A DNA stretch of 64,000 nucleotides from a virus. Below, piece by piece: positions 1,310 to 13,445 of this stretch (its first letter is position 1; the number at the start of each line of letters is the position of its first letter). The notes beneath the pieces are model-generated. The model did not search any database. It was not told the origin of the DNA and saw only the letters and a list, made by a program, of their open reading frames with translations. The stretch lies in the IMG/VR virus record IMGVR_UViG_3300006147_000011, one strand, 5' to 3'. Made by a program: the position numbers and the translations under genes.

Positions 1310-2119
1310 ATGATTAAAATCGAAGACACGATTATTAAACAAGAAACATTTGGCGACGGAACGCTTAAATGCCCTATTCCACCAATTGCAGCGGCGCGTG
1401 GTTTTATCTATATTACGTGGTGCTACGACAATGACGCAGAGCTGTTTTGCCTGTGGAGTCTTGTAGGACACATTCGCCAGCAACACCCTACACTTCTCAT
1501 AAATCTTTGTATGCCGTATATTCCTCATGCACGGCAAGACAGAAACGTCAGCAATAGACTGTTTACCCTCAAATATTTTGCAGAACTCATAAATCTTATG
1601 AAGTTTAACAAAGTGTTTGTACTCGACCCCCACTCCGATGTTTCAATGGCACTCATTGATCGTGTGGAAGAAAGTGACTTACCGTTCAGGGTTTCGCCCA
1701 AAGATGAGCAAGCAACCATTATGTTTCCTGACAACGGAGCTGCAAAGAAGTACGCTCCTCGTTATCATCTTGAGCCGACAGACAACCCTTTCATTATCGG
1801 AAATAAACACCGCAACACGGATGGTCGTATTGAAAGCTATGAGTTGATGAACTTCGTAGAAGGGACAAAGAGCGTTATCATTCGTGACGACATTTGTAGC
1901 TACGGTGGAACATTCGTTGCGGCGGCGAAAGAATTAAGAAAACGCGGTGTCGAACATATTACCCTCGTTGTATCACATTGCGAGAATAACATTCTTAAGG
2001 GTGAGGTGTTCGATCATATAGATGCAGTGTTCACTACCGACAGTATTTGTACCGTATCACATCCAAAACTCAAAGTCACAAGGTGTTACAGGGAGGGCTT
2101 ACTAAATGTACAGAATTAA
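1310..2119 (+). CDS. ribose-phosphate pyrophosphokinase (Prs) homolog; candidate ADP-ribose pyrophosphokinase (Adps-like) of a NARP1-type pathway
   Basis: PYIPHARQDR (Prs PYxxYARQDRK), VFVLDPHSD (DLHA region), IIRDDICSYGGTF (PRPP-binding DDxIDTGGT-like). Confidence 0.7.
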   Translation: MIKIEDTIIKQETFGDGTLKCPIPPIAAARGFIYITWCYDNDAELFCLWSLVGHIRQQHPTLLINLCMPYIPHARQDRNVSNRLFTLKYFAELINLMKFNKVFVLDPHSDVSMALIDRVEESDLPFRVSPKDEQATIMFPDNGAAKKYAPRYHLEPTDNPFIIGNKHRNTDGRIESYELMNFVEGTKSVIIRDDICSYGGTFVAAAKELRKRGVEHITLVVSHCENNILKGEVFDHIDAVFTTDSICTVSHPKLKVTRCYREGLLNVQN

Positions 2120-3599
2120 CCCGCTTTTAGAAAGCGATTTTTATAAACAAGTTCATTGGAACCAATATCCAAAAGGCATCACGAAGGTCGTAAGCTATTT
2201 TGTGCCAAGAATGAGCAGATTAAAGAACGATAAACACCTTATAATGTTTGGGTTACAGTCTTTCATCAAAGAATATCTTATCGAAGACTTTAACGAGTTC
2301 TTCTTTTCCCGTCCTAAGGAAGACGTTGTACGCGAATACAAACATCTCCTCAACAACACACTCGGTGAAGGGTTGTACGGCATTGAGCGCATCGCAGAAC
2401 TACACGACTTGGGCTATCTGCCCATTGAGATTAAGGCACTCGCAGAAGGCACTCTCGTTCCAATCGGCGTTCCTATGTTCGAGATAAGCAACACTCACCC
2501 CGATTTTGCTTGGCTTACAAACGCGCTCGAATCTGTCATCAGTTGCGAAATGTGGCACGCCATGATTTCGGCAAATGTCGGGTACAAATATAGGAAAATT
2601 GTAGATCACTTCTATGATTTAAGTTGCGACGACAATATCCCTCGTAGAAAAGCTCTTGGAGATTTCTCAATGAGAGGACAAGAGTCAAAACGTAGTGCAT
2701 ATAAATCTTCCGCCGGTTGGCTGTTATCATTCGTGAACACTGCCACCGTTCCTGCGGTAGATTATATGGAAAGATATTATAACTGCGACTGTTCAAAAGA
2801 GGAAGTCGGCTTTGGTTCTGTGTCAACTGAGCACTCTGTAATGTGCAGCAATTTCGCGGTTGACGGTGACGAAATCACAATGATTAAGCGTCTGCTCACA
2901 GAAATCTATCCTAATACGTCTTTCAGTATGGTGAGCGACAGCTACGATTACTGGAACTTGGTAGACAACATCTTGCCAATGTGTAAGAAAGAAATCCTCG
3001 AGCATAACGGATGTCTCTTGGTGCGCGGCGACTCTGGCGACCCCGTTGAGGTCGTCACAAAGACCGTGTTCCACCTTTGGGAGCAGTTCGGTGGAACAGT
3101 CAACTCAAAGGGCTACAAGGTTCTAAACCCCCATATCAAGGCAATATACGGCGATAGCATTACGCCTCAAAGAGCAGAAGCAATTTACACGATATTGGTT
3201 GACAACGGATTTGCAGCAAGCAATGTTGCTCTCGGTGTTGGTAGCTTCTCTATGCAATGCCTTGAGTCTTACGAGGAACACGCTGCTATCCCGACGTTCA
3301 ACCCCTACACAAGAGATACGTTCGGAATTGCCATCAAGGCGACTTATGCTGAAGATAAAGACGGAAAGCCTATAATGATTTTCAAAAATCCCAAAGAGGC
3401 TTCGTTCAAAAAGTCTCACAAAGGCTGTGTGCTCGTTTTAACGGGGGCTGACGGCGCGTTAACAAGCGAAGACGAACACGACTTCAAAGAGACTTATCGT
3501 GCCGACAATGCCCTAAAGACGGTCTTTAACGACGGCAAGATGACGCTCGAATATAGTCTTGCCGATGTCCGCAGAAGGCTTTATGGAGATAAATTTTAA
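2106..3599 (+). CDS. nicotinamide phosphoribosyltransferase family protein (Nampt/NadV-like; candidate Namat)
   Basis: N-terminal SDFYKQVHWNQYPKGITKVVSYFVPR matches Nampt [25 protein letters not shown]; 497 aa, typical size. Confidence 0.8.
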   Translation: MYRINPLLESDFYKQVHWNQYPKGITKVVSYFVPRMSRLKNDKHLIMFGLQSFIKEYLIEDFNEFFFSRPKEDVVREYKHLLNNTLGEGLYGIERIAELHDLGYLPIEIKALAEGTLVPIGVPMFEISNTHPDFAWLTNALESVISCEMWHAMISANVGYKYRKIVDHFYDLSCDDNIPRRKALGDFSMRGQESKRSAYKSSAGWLLSFVNTATVPAVDYMERYYNCDCSKEEVGFGSVSTEHSVMCSNFAVDGDEITMIKRLLTEIYPNTSFSMVSDSYDYWNLVDNILPMCKKEILEHNGCLLVRGDSGDPVEVVTKTVFHLWEQFGGTVNSKGYKVLNPHIKAIYGDSITPQRAEAIYTILVDNGFAASNVALGVGSFSMQCLESYEEHAAIPTFNPYTRDTFGIAIKATYAEDKDGKPIMIFKNPKEASFKKSHKGCVLVLTGADGALTSEDEHDFKETYRADNALKTVFNDGKMTLEYSLADVRRRLYGDKF

Positions 3600-4075
3600 T
3601 GATCACATATAAAAACGGAGATTTGCTTAAAAGCAACTGCAATATCATCTGCCACCAAGTAAACTGTCAAGGAGTTATGGGTTCAGGCATCGCAAAACAG
3701 ATACGCGCCACTTACCCCCATATCTTTTCAAAATATAAACAGCTATGCGAGCAGAATAAACTGGAATACCTAATGGGAGTTGCTCAAATATGCGCAATTT
3801 CAGAGGCTAAGACCCACTACATTGCTAATATGTTCGCACAGCTTCATTACTTGCCGCGTGGCATTAACCATACGAACTATGAGATGTTTAGGCTATGCTG
3901 CCAACAACTTAAAACCCTTATTCCGATAGAGATTGCCGATACAGAATTTACTATTGGCTTCCCTTATGGCATCGGTTGCGGACTGGGTGGCGGCGACTGG
4001 AACATAGTGAGAAAAATCATCGAAGAAGAATTTGCCGACGATAAATGGAAGGTTGAAATATGGAAGCTAAACTAA
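3599..4075 (+). CDS. macro domain protein (ADP-ribose binding or processing)
   Basis: GDLLKSNCNIICHQVNCQGVMGSGIAKQI resembles the macro-domain GDIT..DAIVNAAN..GGGGVDGAIH core; 158 aa. Confidence 0.6.
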   Translation: MITYKNGDLLKSNCNIICHQVNCQGVMGSGIAKQIRATYPHIFSKYKQLCEQNKLEYLMGVAQICAISEAKTHYIANMFAQLHYLPRGINHTNYEMFRLCCQQLKTLIPIEIADTEFTIGFPYGIGCGLGGGDWNIVRKIIEEEFADDKWKVEIWKLN

Positions 4076-4815
4076 AAGAAATATTAGACTGGCTTGAACA
4101 GTACAAAGAAATTACAAGATGTCGCGGAGTTGTTCTTGGAATAAGTGGCGGCAAAGATAGCACCGTTGTAGCAATGCTTGCGAAGAAAGTTTGGGGGGAC
4201 AATGTGCTTGGCGTTCTTATGCCAAATCACAACCAATCCGACCTTGACGACTCTCTCAAAATTGTTGAAACCCTTGGGATAAACTTCAAGGTAGTTAATA
4301 TCGGAAAAGTTTATGACTCATTGCTCGAGGTTGTCGAAGACGAAGGTTCTGGCTCGGATTATTGTAACGGTAAGGTATTTAATATCTCAAGAAAATCACT
4401 TACCAATATCCCTCCTCGTATTCGTATGACAGTGCTGTACGCCATTGCCCAAACCCTTGGATACAGGGTTATTGGAACAGGCAATGCAAGCGAGGCTTAT
4501 ATCGGTTGGACAACCAAATGGGGCGACAGCGCATACGACTTCAACCCCATTGCCCATCTAACCTGTACCGAGGTTATTGCTCTCGGCGAACTGCTTGCTG
4601 AGGAGTTCGGATTAGATAAAAAGTATGTCGTTAAGACACCGTCCGATGGATTATGCGGCAAGAGTGACGAAGATAGTTTCGGCTTTACATACTCAACGCT
4701 TGACGGGTATATCACGGGTGGAACTTCAAACACGGATTACGAAACCGCTCTAAAAATAGAGCAAATGCACCAAGCGTCAGAGCACAAGAGAAATATGCCC
4801 GCTACGTTAGAGTAA
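4060..4815 (+). CDS. nadE: NH3-dependent NAD+ synthetase (NadE)
   Basis: PP-loop VVLGISGGKDSTVVA followed by the LGVLMP motif typical of NadE. Confidence 0.7.
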   Translation: MEAKLKEILDWLEQYKEITRCRGVVLGISGGKDSTVVAMLAKKVWGDNVLGVLMPNHNQSDLDDSLKIVETLGINFKVVNIGKVYDSLLEVVEDEGSGSDYCNGKVFNISRKSLTNIPPRIRMTVLYAIAQTLGYRVIGTGNASEAYIGWTTKWGDSAYDFNPIAHLTCTEVIALGELLAEEFGLDKKYVVKTPSDGLCGKSDEDSFGFTYSTLDGYITGGTSNTDYETALKIEQMHQASEHKRNMPATLE

Positions 4816-6650: not shown

Positions 6651-7016
6651 ATGAGCCTCGACAAAGCAATTCAACACGGTAAAGAAAAGAGAAAACCTTA
6701 CTATGGCGAGAAAGCATTTGATCCAGCGTGCCGCAATCACGGCGGTGACGATTGGAGTAAAAGCAATCGTACAATTCAGCGTCAGCGTGCCGAACAGCAA
6801 GCAAATTCAAAAATTCAAGAGGCTCAAACCGAACCCGTTTTAACCAACCGCGAATGGCTTGAAAGTCTCACCGATGAACAATTAGCGGAAATGTTAATTG
6901 GTTCATTCAAAATTTTCGTCGCGGTTGACAGAAGCATAGGAACGAAAGAAAATGACAGTCGTCAAGACAGCATTAAAAAACATATTCAATGGCTTCGTTC
7001 CAAACACAAAAAATAA
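6651..7016 (+). CDS. hypothetical protein (121 aa)
   Basis: ORF with RBS GGAGAA; no recognisable motif. Confidence 0.4.
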   Translation: MSLDKAIQHGKEKRKPYYGEKAFDPACRNHGGDDWSKSNRTIQRQRAEQQANSKIQEAQTEPVLTNREWLESLTDEQLAEMLIGSFKIFVAVDRSIGTKENDSRQDSIKKHIQWLRSKHKK

Positions 7017-7029
7017 TTTGGAGTGTATT

Positions 7030-8168
7030 ATGAGAAAACTTGCTCACATCGAACAAATTGCATGGCTCCGCCCCATCGAAGGAGCTGACAAAATCGAGCT
7101 CGCCGGCATACTCGGCTGGCAGTGTATCGTAAAAAAGAATGAATTTAAGGTTGGCGATCTTGCAATCTACGTTGAAATTGACAGCATTATGCCTTCCGAC
7201 AATCCTGACTTCGCGTTTCTTGAGTCTAAACATTATAAAATTAAGACAATGAAAATGCGCGGCGTCATATCTCAAGGCATCATCTTCCCCCTCTCTGTTC
7301 TCCATGACGAAAAAACACACGGCATCGGTGACGATGTTACCGACATCCTTAAGATTAAACAGGTCGAAGATGATGTTCCCAAGCAACAGGTCAAAGACCC
7401 CGCGGCGGCAATTAAGCAACGCCACAAAAAACTCTTCAAAAATAAAGTATTTTTATGGTTTATGAAGTTCAAGTGGTTTAGAAAAACCGTTTATAAACTT
7501 CTCGCACCGAAAAAGAAACCGAAAAACTTCCCCGACTGGATCGTTAAAACGGACGAAACACGTTTGCAAAATATGCCTTTCGTTCTCGATACATACAAGG
7601 ACAAGCCAATGGTCGTCACTGAAAAGCTGGACGGCACCTCTACGAGCTTTGGGTTGAGAAAAGAAAAGAAAAGAAAAGAAAATATGACTTCGCGGTGTGT
7701 TCACGGAACGTGCGCCAAGCCGACATCAACCAAAAGTGTTTCTACGACGACAATGTGTACCACCAAATCGCCAATAAGTACGACATCCGCAACGTGCTTA
7801 TGCAGATACTTGAAAAATATAAAGCAACTACTGTCGTTCTTCAGGGCGAAACCATTGGCGAGGCAATTCAAAAAAATAAATACGGTCTCAAGGGAATTGA
7901 TTTCTATGCCTTCAACCTTGTAATCGACGGGGTAAAAATGGACAGCGCAGTCGCAACAGATGTGATGCACGACTTTGGAATCAAGTGGGTTCCGATTATT
8001 AACGCGAACTTTAAGCTGCTCCCCACTGTCGATGAAATGATTGCTTATGCTGACGGAAAGTCCACATTGTGCGATACGCTTAGAGAAGGCGTTGTTATAC
8101 GAGACCACGACAACAAAATTAGCTTTAAGTGTATCAGCAATCAATTCTTACTTAAACACAATATATAA
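7030..8168 (+). CDS. Rnl2-family ATP-dependent RNA ligase, split by a frameshift inside a (GAAAA)5 repeat
   Basis: Adenylation motif KLDGTS (frame 1), then CSRN, LQGETIGEAIQKN (Rnl2 GIQKN motif) and REGVVIR in frame 3 (7695..8168); ATG 7030 with RBS GGAGTG. Confidence 0.6.
7658..7682 (+). repeat. pentanucleotide simple-sequence repeat (GAAAA)x5 at the ligase frameshift
   Basis: gaaaagaaaagaaaagaaaagaaaa read directly; gain or loss of one 5-nt unit shifts the frame by -1 or +1. Confidence 0.9.
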
Positions 8169-8181
8169 GGAGTCGTGAGAT

Positions 8182-8406
8182 GTGAACAGAGAGAGAAGAA
8201 AACGAATTAACAAAGTCATAGCTACAATCAATGGGTGTGCCGATGAGCTTGACGATATAAAGTTTGACGAAGACTACGCAAGAGAGAACACACCCGAAAA
8301 TTTGCAAGGGGGCGACGCTTATTGTACATCGGAAGACTGTAGTGATAAAATAGAAGATGCAATCTCTGACATTCGACAGGCGGCAAGTACCTTGGAAGAA
8401 ATTTAG
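8182..8406 (+). CDS. putative antitoxin partner of MazF-like toxin (basic N-terminus, acidic C-terminus)
   Basis: 74-aa ORF ending 15 nt before the MazF start; RERRKRINKV basic N-terminus, very acidic C-terminus. Confidence 0.3.
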   Translation: MNRERRKRINKVIATINGCADELDDIKFDEDYARENTPENLQGGDAYCTSEDCSDKIEDAISDIRQAASTLEEI

Positions 8407-8420
8407 AGGCGGTATCAATT

Positions 8421-8762
8421 ATGCACCGAGGCGAAATATATTTAGTCGATTTAAGTAATCAGGTAGGCTCGGAACAAACCGGTATTCGCCCCGCTTTGAT
8501 AGTACAGAATGAACAAGGGAACCAACATTCCCCTACTACTATCATTTGCCCTCTCACATCTCAAGATAAAACACCGATAGAAACTCACGTTACGCTGACG
8601 CCAAGCGATGCAGGAATACTTAAAGTTTCTACGGTGTTATGTGAGCAGGTCAGAGTTGTAGACAAAACGAGACTTAAGAAAAAGTTGGGCGAAGTTGTTA
8701 ATAGAAGTAAAATTGACGACATTAACAGAAAACTTATGATTTCTATCGGTATAGGAGTTTAA
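8421..8762 (+). CDS. mazF: MazF/PemK-family mRNA interferase toxin
   Basis: RGEIYLVDL ... GSEQTGIRPALIV ... ICPLTS, the classic MazF/PemK N-terminal signature. Confidence 0.7.
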   Translation: MHRGEIYLVDLSNQVGSEQTGIRPALIVQNEQGNQHSPTTIICPLTSQDKTPIETHVTLTPSDAGILKVSTVLCEQVRVVDKTRLKKKLGEVVNRSKIDDINRKLMISIGIGV

Positions 8763-8763
8763 T

Positions 8764-8961
8764 ATGAGCTACGAACCATTAACTAAAATAGTAATCGACG
8801 ATAACGGCAACCAGATGGCTGCTTGTCGGTTATATGGCACCAATGAGTGCCTCATACATAAGCCTAACGGTTGCACGAATTGCCCAATGCTTAAGGCAAT
8901 TTTTACCCAATTAAATACATTTGAAAAAATATATATGGAGGGAGATGACGATGCGAACTGA
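8764..8961 (+). CDS. small Cys-rich hypothetical protein
   Basis: 65-aa ORF with CRLYGTNEC ... CTNC. Confidence 0.3.
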   Translation: MSYEPLTKIVIDDNGNQMAACRLYGTNECLIHKPNGCTNCPMLKAIFTQLNTFEKIYMEGDDDAN

Positions 8962-9940
8962 TTGTAGCCGCGACTCAGTTGTATTAAACTTTCCCGTTCC
9001 AAGGGCATTTGAAACAGACGCAGAAAGAGCAGATCGCCTTGAACTGGAAAACAAACAGCTCGTTGAAGAGCTTGCGGTTGAACGTATCATGAGACGTGAT
9101 GCAGAAGATCGCGTAGATAAACTACAACGGCAAATTTGCGAGCTTGAAAATAAACCACGTCGTAAGCGTCGAACAAAAGCCGAAATGGAAGCCGCGGAAC
9201 CCATAGTATTCTCTGAATTTAAGTCCGACGGCAAAAGGAAACCACGTCCGGCAGACCCGATACGTTCATATGAAGACTTTGCGTCAATCCAAAATTATTT
9301 TTTGGAGCAAGGCAAAATACGTGATTGGGCGTTGTGGACAATCGGAGTAAGCCTTGGATTGCGTATCTCGGACTTACTATCGCTAAAGATAAGTTACTTG
9401 CTCAATGACGATAGAACATTTCGTCAAAGAATGTATATCGTCGAACAAAAAACTTTGAAGATAAATAATTGCCTGATAACCCAATCAGTCAAAGACGCGG
9501 CGACGAAGTTATTTGACTCAATAAATTGGGACTTCGAGTTAGACGATTACCTCTTCAAAAGTAATAAGACGAAGGGCAAAATGTTTGAGGAATATGGGTG
9601 GAAGATTTTGTCCGACGCCGGCAAAGCTTTGAACCTACCAATTATAATAGGCTCACACACAATGCGTAAAAGCTTCGCCAACATTGCTGCTTGTGTAGAT
9701 AAGTCAAGTATCGACATGAACGCAATCACGAAAATCCAAGGGCTTTTGAACCATAGCGACCAGCGCGTCACTATGAGATATCTGGGCACTTATCAACAGA
9801 TGTTTGACAAAGCCCGTGAGTCCGTGAGCGAGTTCGTTCTGGGAAAGACTGACATACACGAAATCGTAGCAGGCAATAACTATACAATCGATGATATAGT
9901 TTCAAAGATTGACCAACTCGAAAAAAAATTATCAAATTAG
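8921..9940 (+). CDS. tyrosine site-specific recombinase/integrase (339 aa) with coiled-coil N-terminus
   Basis: Catalytic boxes LGLRISDLLSL (Arg), HTMRKSFANI (HxxR), RVTMRYL (Tyr). Confidence 0.6.
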   Translation: MKKYIWREMTMRTDCSRDSVVLNFPVPRAFETDAERADRLELENKQLVEELAVERIMRRDAEDRVDKLQRQICELENKPRRKRRTKAEMEAAEPIVFSEFKSDGKRKPRPADPIRSYEDFASIQNYFLEQGKIRDWALWTIGVSLGLRISDLLSLKISYLLNDDRTFRQRMYIVEQKTLKINNCLITQSVKDAATKLFDSINWDFELDDYLFKSNKTKGKMFEEYGWKILSDAGKALNLPIIIGSHTMRKSFANIAACVDKSSIDMNAITKIQGLLNHSDQRVTMRYLGTYQQMFDKARESVSEFVLGKTDIHEIVAGNNYTIDDIVSKIDQLEKKLSN

Positions 9941-11950: not shown

Positions 11951-12160
11951 ATGTTATTTACAGTAGCTGAAGTAGCGGCAATCTTAAAGACAAATGTGGA
12001 TTACGTCCACAAACTCAGAAAAGCGAAATTATTGCCATTCATCAAGCTCGGCTCCTTCAAGGTTAGGAAAGAGTCTTTGGAAATCTTCCTGCAAAAGTAT
12101 GAAGGAAAAGACTTAACAGAGCCTACCAATATTAAGGAGCTCGACGATGGCAAAAATTAA
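11951..12160 (+). CDS. xis: excisionase-family helix-turn-helix DNA-binding protein
   Basis: MLFTVAEVAAILKTNVDYVHKLRKAKLLPFIKLGSFKVRKESL (HTH_17/Xis-like); overlaps the integrase start; RBS AGGAGA before ATG 11951. Confidence 0.55.
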   Translation: MLFTVAEVAAILKTNVDYVHKLRKAKLLPFIKLGSFKVRKESLEIFLQKYEGKDLTEPTNIKELDDGKN

Positions 12161-13445
12161 CGTAAGAGACAGGAACAGAAACAAGCCCGACAAGAAACCA
12201 AACTGGGAATACCGATTTGAGGCAGCTCGGGTTGATGGCAAAAGAAAGCACATATCCAAGGCTGGGTTCAAAACAAAAAAAGAAGCCTTGGAAGCAGGTG
12301 CTTTGGCGATGTCGGAGTATAATACGGCAGGACTTCACTTTGAACCCTCCGAGATTGGTGTTAATGATTACCTTGATTATTGGTATGAACAGTATTGCGT
12401 TACAAACTTAAAATATAATACGCTCGTGACATATCAAAACCTTATCAAGAAACACATTAAACCACACATAGGAATGTACAAACTTAAAAGTTTGAACCCT
12501 TCCGTATTGCAAGACTATGCAAACGAATTAAGCAAGAAAGGATATTCCATTTCTTATGTTTTTGGGATACTTTCCACCTTAAAGGTTGCTCTTGATTACG
12601 CAGTATTTCCCTTGAAATATATTCGAGACAACCCTATCACTTATATCAAGTTCCCTACTAATGGCAAGCGAAAACGTGCAAGGCAAGTAATAAGTCGCGA
12701 AGAATTTGAAAAAATAATGCAACGGTTCCCTTTTGGAAACCGCTTCCACATCCCCCTTCTCTTTGGGTGGTACTGCGGATTGAGAATATCAGAGGCGTTC
12801 GCTGTTACGTGGGAAGACATTGACTTTGAAAATAAAACCTTGAACGTTGACAAACAGATCATTAAGCGCAACTATGGTTTGGAAGAAAAGACTTCATTGC
12901 GCTACCGCAGAAACAACGAGAAATCTGCTTGGTATTTTGCTCCTCCAAAATATGACTCGTGTAGAGTGATAAAGATTGGAGACCACCTTATAGATATTCT
13001 CCGCCAAGAAAAGCAACGCCAAGAAAGTAACGAGCAACTCTATAGAGAATATTACACCACCTATGTGGCAGTAAATGAGATTGACGAGAAAGGTAATGAG
13101 ATTACGAGAATTGTGCCGGTACAAAAATGTATTGAAACGGTTCAACCTCATATTAACTTCGTATGCGTTGAAGAGAATGGAATCTTCTCTACAACAGACA
13201 CGTTCAAGTATGCGACTCGCGTCATTCAGGGACTAATAGAAACACCTTTTGACTTCCACTCGCTTCGTCATTCGCACGCTACGCTCCTTATAGAGAACGG
13301 TGTAAGCCCGAAAGCAGTACAGCAGAGACTTGGTCATAGAAGCATCGTTACGACGCTCCAGACCTACGTTAAAGCCACAGAGCATATGCAACAAGAAGCC
13401 GCTGACGCCTTTGAAGAGATAATGGCAACACCGCCCGCGGCATAA
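12147..13445 (+). CDS. int: tyrosine integrase (Tn916/phage Int type) with N-terminal arm-binding domain
   Basis: N-terminus MAKINVRDRNRNKPDKKPNWEYRF (arm-DNA-binding fold); GLRISEAFAVTWEDID, HSLRHSHATLL (HxxR), TTLQTYV (Tyr). Confidence 0.8.
   Translation: MAKINVRDRNRNKPDKKPNWEYRFEAARVDGKRKHISKAGFKTKKEALEAGALAMSEYNTAGLHFEPSEIGVNDYLDYWYEQYCVTNLKYNTLVTYQNLIKKHIKPHIGMYKLKSLNPSVLQDYANELSKKGYSISYVFGILSTLKVALDYAVFPLKYIRDNPITYIKFPTNGKRKRARQVISREEFEKIMQRFPFGNRFHIPLLFGWYCGLRISEAFAVTWEDIDFENKTLNVDKQIIKRNYGLEEKTSLRYRRNNEKSAWYFAPPKYDSCRVIKIGDHLIDILRQEKQRQESNEQLYREYYTTYVAVNEIDEKGNEITRIVPVQKCIETVQPHINFVCVEENGIFSTTDTFKYATRVIQGLIETPFDFHSLRHSHATLLIENGVSPKAVQQRLGHRSIVTTLQTYVKATEHMQQEAADAFEEIMATPPAA

Follow-up and report, generated by a model that had tools for sequence, protein, structure and literature searches.

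Contingency loci built on short repeats within coding sequence are known from Neisseria, Haemophilus and Campylobacter, one example being the CTCTT pentamer of the Neisseria opa genes. Phase variation is recognised by three criteria: single-locus genetic switching, reversibility and a minimal switching rate (PMC11868660). In phages, contingency loci have been recognised only lately and so far as homopolymer runs in cultured phages; they occur in T2, T4 and other phages, for example in agt, which in T2 mediates a trade-off between defence and counter-defence (PMC12633550), and polyG tracts are reported from the receptor-binding genes of Campylobacter Fletchervirus phages (Sorensen 2021, cited in PMC12633550). 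Here we analyse a pentanucleotide repeat, (GAAAA)5, that breaks the reading frame of an RNA ligase gene in the IMG/VR virus record IMGVR_UViG_3300006147_000011, of which a stretch of 64,000 nucleotides (the window) was studied. The words "pentanucleotide" and "ligase" are absent from the preprint PMC12633550, and our search found no relevant literature on a Christensenellaceae prophage RNA ligase.

With bacterial coding-repeat phase variation the ligase locus shares a repeat unit within an open reading frame (ORF) that is not a multiple of three, such that gain or loss of one unit toggles translation, and the coexistence in nature of alleles that differ in unit number alone. It departs from the bacterial systems in its length, the phage tract having two to five units where bacterial tracts typically have at least seven, and in its cargo: the phage or prophage gene specifies a cytoplasmic enzyme acting on nucleic acid, and is not a surface or restriction-modification gene. 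The likeness to the homopolymer tracts of phages lies in polymerase slippage within a coding repeat, which would yield mixed functional and frameshifted progeny; however, the runs described there are mononucleotide whereas the unit here is 5 nt, and the evidence at the ligase locus is population-genomic, from uncultured gut phages, and not experimental. The mechanism is that of classical bacterial coding-repeat phase variation, the principle of which is established. What appears to be new is a pentanucleotide contingency locus in an Rnl5-type ligase of uncultured gut phages, seen in natural populations.

The ligase gene lies on the plus strand of the window. Its start codon was placed at the ATG at 7030, and not at the in-frame ATG at 6952, because every homolog begins at the matching MRKLAHIE; a Shine-Dalgarno-like GGAG stands just upstream (7020-7023). 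The 5' part of the gene (7030-7657, frame 1) encodes an OB domain (amino acids 4-88), a basic linker and motif I, KLDG, as judged from a match to PF21189 and from alignment with the Naegleria gruberi RNA ligase NgrRnl. Motif I reads EKLDGT, with the codon for Lys199 at 7624-7626. The 3' part (7683-8168) is in frame 3, which is open from 7623, and by translation, a match to PF09414 and the NgrRnl alignment it carries motifs Ia to V: Ia, CSRN, at 7698-7709; III (LQGE...), LQGETIGEAIQKN, at 7839-7877; IV, REGVV, at 8082-8096; and V, FKCIS, at 8124-8138, followed by a TAA stop codon at 8166-8168. Between the two parts lies the coding repeat, GAAAAGAAAAGAAAAGAAAAGAAAA, at 7658-7682, a tract that we take to be hypermutable. 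This 25-nt sequence matches nowhere else in the window, even with two mismatches allowed, and none of 100 dinucleotide-preserving shuffles contained any match; according to Tandem Repeats Finder it is the sole perfect repeat of at least five copies in the window.

As it stands in the window, the ORF (7030-7923) specifies a 297-amino-acid product in which the OB domain and motif I are followed by about 80 out-of-frame residues, ending at TAA 7921-7923; everything past motif I is out of frame. The identical gene call is present in two independent contigs (L004 and L008; L numbers denote loci from public collections and P numbers proteins). A residual ORF of 157 amino acids with a GTG start (7695-8168) holds the remainder of the nucleotidyltransferase domain; no obvious ribosome-binding site could be read from the sequence before it. 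Its exact product recurs in public collections (P0135/P0149), and similar fragments are found on dozens of contigs. Deleting one GAAAA unit produces an ORF of 1134 nt and 377 amino acids reading ...TSFGLRKEKKRKYDFAVCSRN..., and by computation the frame is also restored by one additional nucleotide, which is equivalent to a -1 slip, or by two extra units; a -1 frameshift product of the five-unit allele would have the junction GLRKEKEKKRKYDF. The anatomy set out in an initial annotation of this DNA (two frames, the ligase motifs, a junction within (GAAAA)5 and repair by loss of one unit) is confirmed by the sequence and by the 377-residue ORF, and its statement that a -1 slip joins the frames agrees with the effect of the added nucleotide. 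On this reading the window copy is an apparent OFF allele of an otherwise intact phage Rnl5-type RNA ligase gene.

The initial annotation had called the enzyme Rnl2-type, a label that fails. In the repaired protein Pfam recognises PF21189 (PHA02142 OB-fold domain) at residues 4-88 (E 5e-30) and PF09414 (RNA_ligase) at residues 193-366. Sequence matches in the PDB (E up to 1) are to chains of NgrRnl only, the best being 5cot (E 2e-42). Residues 1-114 align with 5cot 4-125 and the nucleotidyltransferase part with NgrRnl 138-338; since the alignment runs to residue 376 of 377 in the phage ligase and 338 of 340 in NgrRnl, there is no C-terminal appendage. Motifs KLDG, SRN, LQGE, REG and FK of the repaired ORF align with those of NgrRnl, and the catalytic residues K199, D201, G202, S223-N225, Q270-E272, R350-G352 and K365 are invariant in an alignment of 40 sequences. 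The Rnl5 family, defined by NgrRnl and the Deinococcus ligase DraRnl, has an N-terminal domain followed by the nucleotidyltransferase and, unlike Rnl2, no C-terminal appendage; both families seal nicks having a 3'-OH RNA strand (PMC4408790), and what Rnl5 ligases act on physiologically is not known (PMC4408790, PMC5397189).

The phage enzyme thus has in common with NgrRnl the signature N-terminal OB-like domain, the nucleotidyltransferase domain behind it and the lack of an appendage, and both domains align; it differs in an interdomain basic linker that is about 50 amino acids longer and in a beta-hairpin past motif I that is 4-5 amino acids longer, rich in Lys and Arg, and encoded by the repeat. 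T4 Rnl2 is likewise an ATP-dependent ligase with the same nucleotidyltransferase motifs, but it is built of an N-terminal nucleotidyltransferase and a signature C-terminal domain, the opposite layout. Because of the order of its domains, the missing appendage and PDB matches confined to NgrRnl, we classify the predicted enzyme as Rnl5-type and not Rnl2-type. It is assigned to phrog_968, "RNA ligase". Against the equivalog model TIGR02306 (RNA_lig_DRB0094) it scores 139.3 bits, under the cut-off of 151.15, a shortfall that lowers the equivalog call and leaves the family-level architecture untouched; the ligase belongs to a divergent clade. In a protein-level search 337 records of cultured phages held homologs, all below 60% identity and the best listed at 32-35%, and a DNA search of cultured phage genomes returned no match to the locus, hence no cultured close relative. 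A 533-residue homolog (P0117; 59% identity over 53% of the query) combines both ligase domains with the intein-splicing domain PF14890 and looks like an Rnl5 ligase that contains an intein.

An AlphaFold model based on 40 homologs (mean predicted local distance difference test score 83.9) places the repeat-encoded RKEKKRK (R210-K216) at the tip of a predicted beta-hairpin, with strands at 203-211 and 217-223, directly past the motif I strand (194-199). A frameshift in the tract deprives the protein of motifs Ia to V.

A search of 5.8 billion proteins returned 7135 homologs, among which more than 100 listed full-length relatives have 372-383 amino acids; those at 97-58% identity are almost all single chains. 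Among the matches listed, the closest (97-79% identity) have 377 amino acids and a junction peptide identical to that of the window sequence with one unit deleted. The comparison of homologous ligases in related phages that the initial annotation had proposed shows single in-frame chains to be dominant, which speaks strongly against two separate ORFs as the native state. Strong purifying selection on the intact protein is indicated because the window and L001 share 97% of residues, yet differ in 28% of conserved codons. The ON state, of four units, is ancestral and is conserved by selection. IMG/VR itself holds a sole relative above 70% identity (L023). The repeat is specific to a clade associated with Christensenellales because relatives at 45-53% identity (L117-L195) carry a basic loop at the position of the tract with no perfect repeat. 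A homolog of 41% identity, in L024/L032 (about 3550-3645), bears an A8 homopolymer (GTAAAAGAAAAAAAATTA) in the corresponding loop past motif I, so that another kind of sequence prone to slippage occupies this place in the structure.

The DNA of relatives was obtained by exact look-up of neighbouring proteins and homologs and by scans of collections, and derives from JGI, ENA (SPAdes NODE contigs) and Logan assemblies of different samples; look-ups by anchor gene merge similar places into one, and those based on fragments are enriched for OFF alleles. Four units (ON) are found in L001, L002, L005, L006/L014, L009, L012, L013, L017-L020, L023, L026, L027, L037-L039, L045, L049 and L051. Five units (OFF) are found in the window and in L004, L008, L010, L011, L015, L031, L196-L202, L204, L208 and L212, and three (OFF) in L048, L203, L205-L207 and L209-L211; the protein P0130 (...GLRKENTTSQ...) corresponds to two units (OFF). 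With five or two units the 3' part falls in the -1 frame, and with three it falls in the other frame, giving a truncation of 215 amino acids. The five-unit product P0123 is on 124 contigs, its intact cluster mates P0122, P0124 and P0125 being on 328, 73 and 48, and C-terminal fragment ORFs of 157, 122 or 119 amino acids are on dozens more.

Some alleles differ in the tract and nowhere else. When the 1091 nt of the ligase gene outside the repeat are compared, not one single-nucleotide polymorphism (SNP) separates the window from two five-unit loci (L011, L015) and four four-unit loci (L006, L009, L017, L018), and over 2.97 kb the single difference between L009 and the window is a 5-nt unit. Comparison of flanking haplotypes across 1.1 kb (7560-8700) revealed three that are identical outside the tract and that each occur with two unit numbers: the first in the window and L011 (five units) and in L006, L009 and L014 (four), the second in L027 (four) and L048 (three), and the third in L196, L204 and L208 (five) and in L206 and L211 (three). 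On a neighbour-joining tree of 39 loci at least 11 changes in unit number are required, and several of the pairs concerned show not one SNP over 1.1-3 kb. Across the deep phylogeny unit number is centred on four, with no drift. Unit number at 7658-7682 is all that separates ON from OFF alleles whose gene or flank haplotypes are otherwise identical, which is single-locus switching in the sense of PMC11868660, and the tract mutates far above its flanking sequence, that is, with localised hypermutation, subject to recombination between phages and to the sampling of some loci. Taken together, the assemblies point firmly to a real and recurrent length polymorphism as the source of the frameshift.

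When the tract is reset to four units, the OFF alleles L004, L008, L011, L031 and L048 yield an intact ORF of 377 amino acids. The exception is L010, which has five units together with one extra base about 210 nt 3' of the tract, in an alignment column near window position 7870 that is a gap in all other sequences; its ORF has 379 amino acids, of which about 63, including motif III, are out of frame, the last third being back in frame (L010 about 3209-3460). Judging from the alignment column, the extra base would lie in or beside an A7 run within the IQKNK codons (window 7870-7876), and may reflect slippage at a second, lesser site or else a fault in the assembly. Contig ends were considered as a sign of within-sample heterogeneity and rejected: L016 and L021 end at 7617 and 7614, 41-44 nt before the tract, whereas a bubble caused by repeat length (assuming k = 31) would be expected to break at about 7677.

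The tract is also conserved where the protein does not demand it. Ten diverged lineages that encode RKEKKRK were compared codon by codon. Outside the tract a single codon is kept in 4 of 46 columns with invariant Lys, Glu or Arg; inside the 21-nt tract all seven codons are identical in all ten lineages (binomial P ~4e-8). Codon bias provides no explanation because lysine codons AAA and AAG are used in the ratio 51:49. For the deep lineages L038, L039 and L023, the chance of keeping all seven codons is only about 0.4-1.2% each. The conservation could reflect selection for a mutable tract, homogenisation by repeated contraction and expansion, or a function of the sequence itself, and either of the first two implies active slippage. 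It is mainly this conservation that may speak for adaptive mutability.

We propose that strands would misalign within (GAAAA)n during DNA replication, such that one 5-nt unit is gained or lost. Because five is not divisible by three, each step would shift the frame just past the motif I lysine: four units would give the full 377-residue ligase, five (or two) a product that carries the OB domain and motif I and turns to nonsense after them, and three the 215-residue truncation. A further slip could restore four units, and populations of phages or lysogens would be kept mixed for ligase-ON and ligase-OFF genomes. That the window holds an OFF allele of a phage Rnl5-type ligase gene whose hypermutable pentanucleotide repeat makes it a contingency (phase-variable) locus, switched by slipped-strand mispairing, is the account that we favour and think probable, albeit with reservations. 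The initial annotation had offered a slippage-prone on/off switch as one of three readings, and it is this one that the occurrence of two to five units in independent assemblies, sometimes between identical flanks, favours. If a contingency locus is defined less strictly, by localised hypermutation alone, the comparative evidence suffices; it is reversion, the switching rate, selection for mutability, the activity of the ligase and its in vivo target that we infer. The identical haplotype holding three and five units, and the OFF alleles devoid of secondary lesions, fit reversion, although all changes on the tree can also be explained as forward changes from four.

A stronger version holds that (GAAAA)n is an evolved bet-hedging switch, maintained by selection in gut phages and prophages of Christensenellales as a reversible mixture of ON and OFF, the ligase helping against some host RNA-targeting defences and being costly, or triggering immunity, in other hosts. 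We advance this tentatively, as a conjecture that may well prove wrong.

Several points weigh against these proposals. Unit counts come from assemblies and protein records, so heterogeneity within samples goes unseen, and L196-L212 were retrieved by way of fragments of OFF alleles, which biases OFF frequencies. Every unit change on the tree is explicable as forward loss from four units, and exchange of DNA between phages by recombination could make independent events look more numerous than they are. The lineages of the codon test were selected for carrying the tract, and in related lineages (L028/L044, L029, L040 and L050) it is interrupted or lost. Classical phase-variable repeats are longer than four or five units, so that the absolute rate could be modest.

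Of the rival explanations the one that survives best invokes the same slippage but grants it no benefit: the tract would be an accidental mutational hot spot in a dispensable accessory gene, and OFF alleles neutral or mildly deleterious dead ends. The gene can be regarded as dispensable because there are relatives (L003, L007) that lack the whole block from the NAD genes to the ligase; in addition the gene of L204 has lost its 5' portion, and in P0099 an internal stretch is deleted. The shortness of the tract, just four to five units, its interruption in several related lineages, and a reversion that is proposed rather than seen fit this explanation as well. A costly tract, however, should be purged by synonymous interruptions, and yet it is kept perfect at all seven codons despite near-saturated synonymous divergence. 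Nor would dead ends be expected to remain free of secondary lesions, as the OFF alleles are except for L010, or unit number to stay centred on four without drifting. On balance we consider a mere hot spot unlikely, if still a serious contender.

According to a second explanation, which the initial annotation had also raised, the five-unit allele still yields full-length ligase by programmed or leaky -1 ribosomal frameshifting, or by transcriptional slippage. A AAG is a context in which tRNA-Lys can slip, and it is present here (GAA AAG, 7663-7668), leaving room for slippage at a low level; about 80 codons of the zero frame are free of stops, and five-unit and two-unit alleles both leave the 3' part in the -1 frame. 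The codons of frame 1 (AGA AAA GAA AAG AAA AGA AAA GAA AAT) contain no X XXY YYZ heptamer, however, and the 100 nt downstream fold less well than shuffled sequence (minimum free energy -23.2 kcal/mol, where shuffles average -28.8; z = +1.62). The longest A run in the tract is four, not enough for transcriptional slippage; the majority of relatives have one ORF, in frame, so the two-frame layout is not conserved; and three-unit alleles, which are common too, would need the opposite shift. We find a recoding signal very improbable.

The third reading in the initial annotation was an assembly artefact, the true genome having four units. It is a fact that the counts come from assemblies rather than raw reads and that several contigs have, by name, only 3-5x coverage. 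Yet the five-unit allele recurs in three assembly sources (JGI, ENA with SPAdes NODE contigs, and Logan), in different samples and on at least four sequence backgrounds, and three-unit and two-unit alleles occur as well. Short-read assemblers generally use k-mers of at least 31, and with such k a 25-nt tract is spanned by single k-mers or reads, so that units are read directly. The chance that the fifth unit is an error is in our view slight indeed. That two separate ORFs are native, as a split ligase or as an OB-domain protein beside a separate C-terminal protein, is scarcely credible: calls of 257, 297 or 215 amino acids together with 157 or 122 are common in public data, but the solved homolog and every diverged relative consist of one chain, the break would fall in the model inside the nucleotidyltransferase beta-sheet directly past motif I, the C-terminal ORF has a GTG start with no evident ribosome-binding site, and split and intact alleles differ in unit number only.

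The window is the genome of a tailed phage, with terminase, portal, tape measure and tail proteins, DNA polymerase, primase-helicase and NrdD. The ligase belongs to an accessory block whose gene order, conserved in relatives, is isochorismatase-family protein (518-1288), PRPS-like phosphoribosyltransferase (1310-2119, overlapping the next gene), NAMPT-family protein (2106-3599), DarG-like macrodomain protein (3599-4075; PADLOC E 4.5e-24), NAD synthase (4060-4815), GP88, Band_7, a 121-residue protein, ligase, a 74-residue protein, MazF/PemK-like toxin (8421-8762; Pfam E 2e-31; phrog "MazF-like growth inhibitor"), a 65-residue protein and tyrosine recombinase. The PRPS-like and NAMPT-like pair resembles the Adps/Namat pathway of NAD+ reconstitution (NARP1) of phages (10.1101/2024.02.11.579819; PMC12774641).

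The stretch from ligase through the 74-residue protein, MazF and the 65-residue protein to the recombinase is conserved in synteny. Within 8182-8961 the MazF-like gene is flanked by the 74-residue (phrog_4068) and 65-residue ORFs, and no recognisable antitoxin lies beside it. A functional pairing of ligase and MazF was considered and is unsupported, L003 and L007 having the MazF-like gene and no ligase. The ends that MazF produces are 2',3'-cyclic phosphate and 5'-OH, and these must be healed before an Rnl5 ligase can join them; no end-healing kinase or phosphatase was noted among the neighbouring genes scanned, the window not having been searched systematically for them. PADLOC gave no match for the ligase, its 121-residue and 74-residue neighbours, the MazF-like protein or the Band_7 protein, and for this reason lends no support to a place for the ligase in a catalogued defence system. 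The role of tRNA-repair enzyme in a counter-defence gene, as the initial annotation had it, is one that the ligase may have.

L003 (1-4342) and L007 (1-2824) are 100% identical to the window from 8275 on and lack the NAD/Band_7/ligase block; in both a DnaB/Toprim helicase gene directly precedes the MazF-like gene. Because a helicase gene stands in its place, the NAD-to-ligase block looks to be a swappable accessory cassette. In L204 (585-1940) other sequence stands in place of the 5' 500 nt of the ligase gene, homology to the window beginning at 7537, and a 382-residue reverse-transcriptase gene (RVT_1) lies upstream; a group II intron or an insertion resembling a retron may account for this. 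P0099, a variant of 249 amino acids in which ...FPEWIVK is joined to MDSSIATDV..., has an in-frame internal deletion of motifs I-III, apparently another natural route to inactivation of the ligase.

The window opens, at its far left, with a tRNA-Pro(TGG) gene (3-74), and two tyrosine-recombinase genes lie at 8921-9940 and 12147-13445. Relatives are found on contigs of 150-470 kb assigned to metagenome-assembled genomes (MAGs) of Christensenellaceae and Clostridia, and close relatives in MAGs of Christensenella, Christensenellaceae and Clostridia, the named sources being rabbit, sheep, goat, water buffalo, chicken and human cohorts. The terminal tRNA-Pro gene, recombinases within 13 kb and relatives on large contigs of bacterial MAGs together suggest a temperate phage often seen as prophage.

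Public metagenomes alone thus reveal a coding pentanucleotide repeat at two to five units in an accessory ligase of phages, and split "pseudogene" calls at short coding repeats in phages may be switch states and not errors or decay. If the repeat is indeed a bet-hedging switch, phages would have their first contingency locus built on multi-nucleotide units, and an RNA repair enzyme would for the first time be under the control of such a locus. The coexisting alleles offer a natural ON/OFF contrast for asking what role Rnl5 plays in a phage, and which host defences make the ligase help or hurt.

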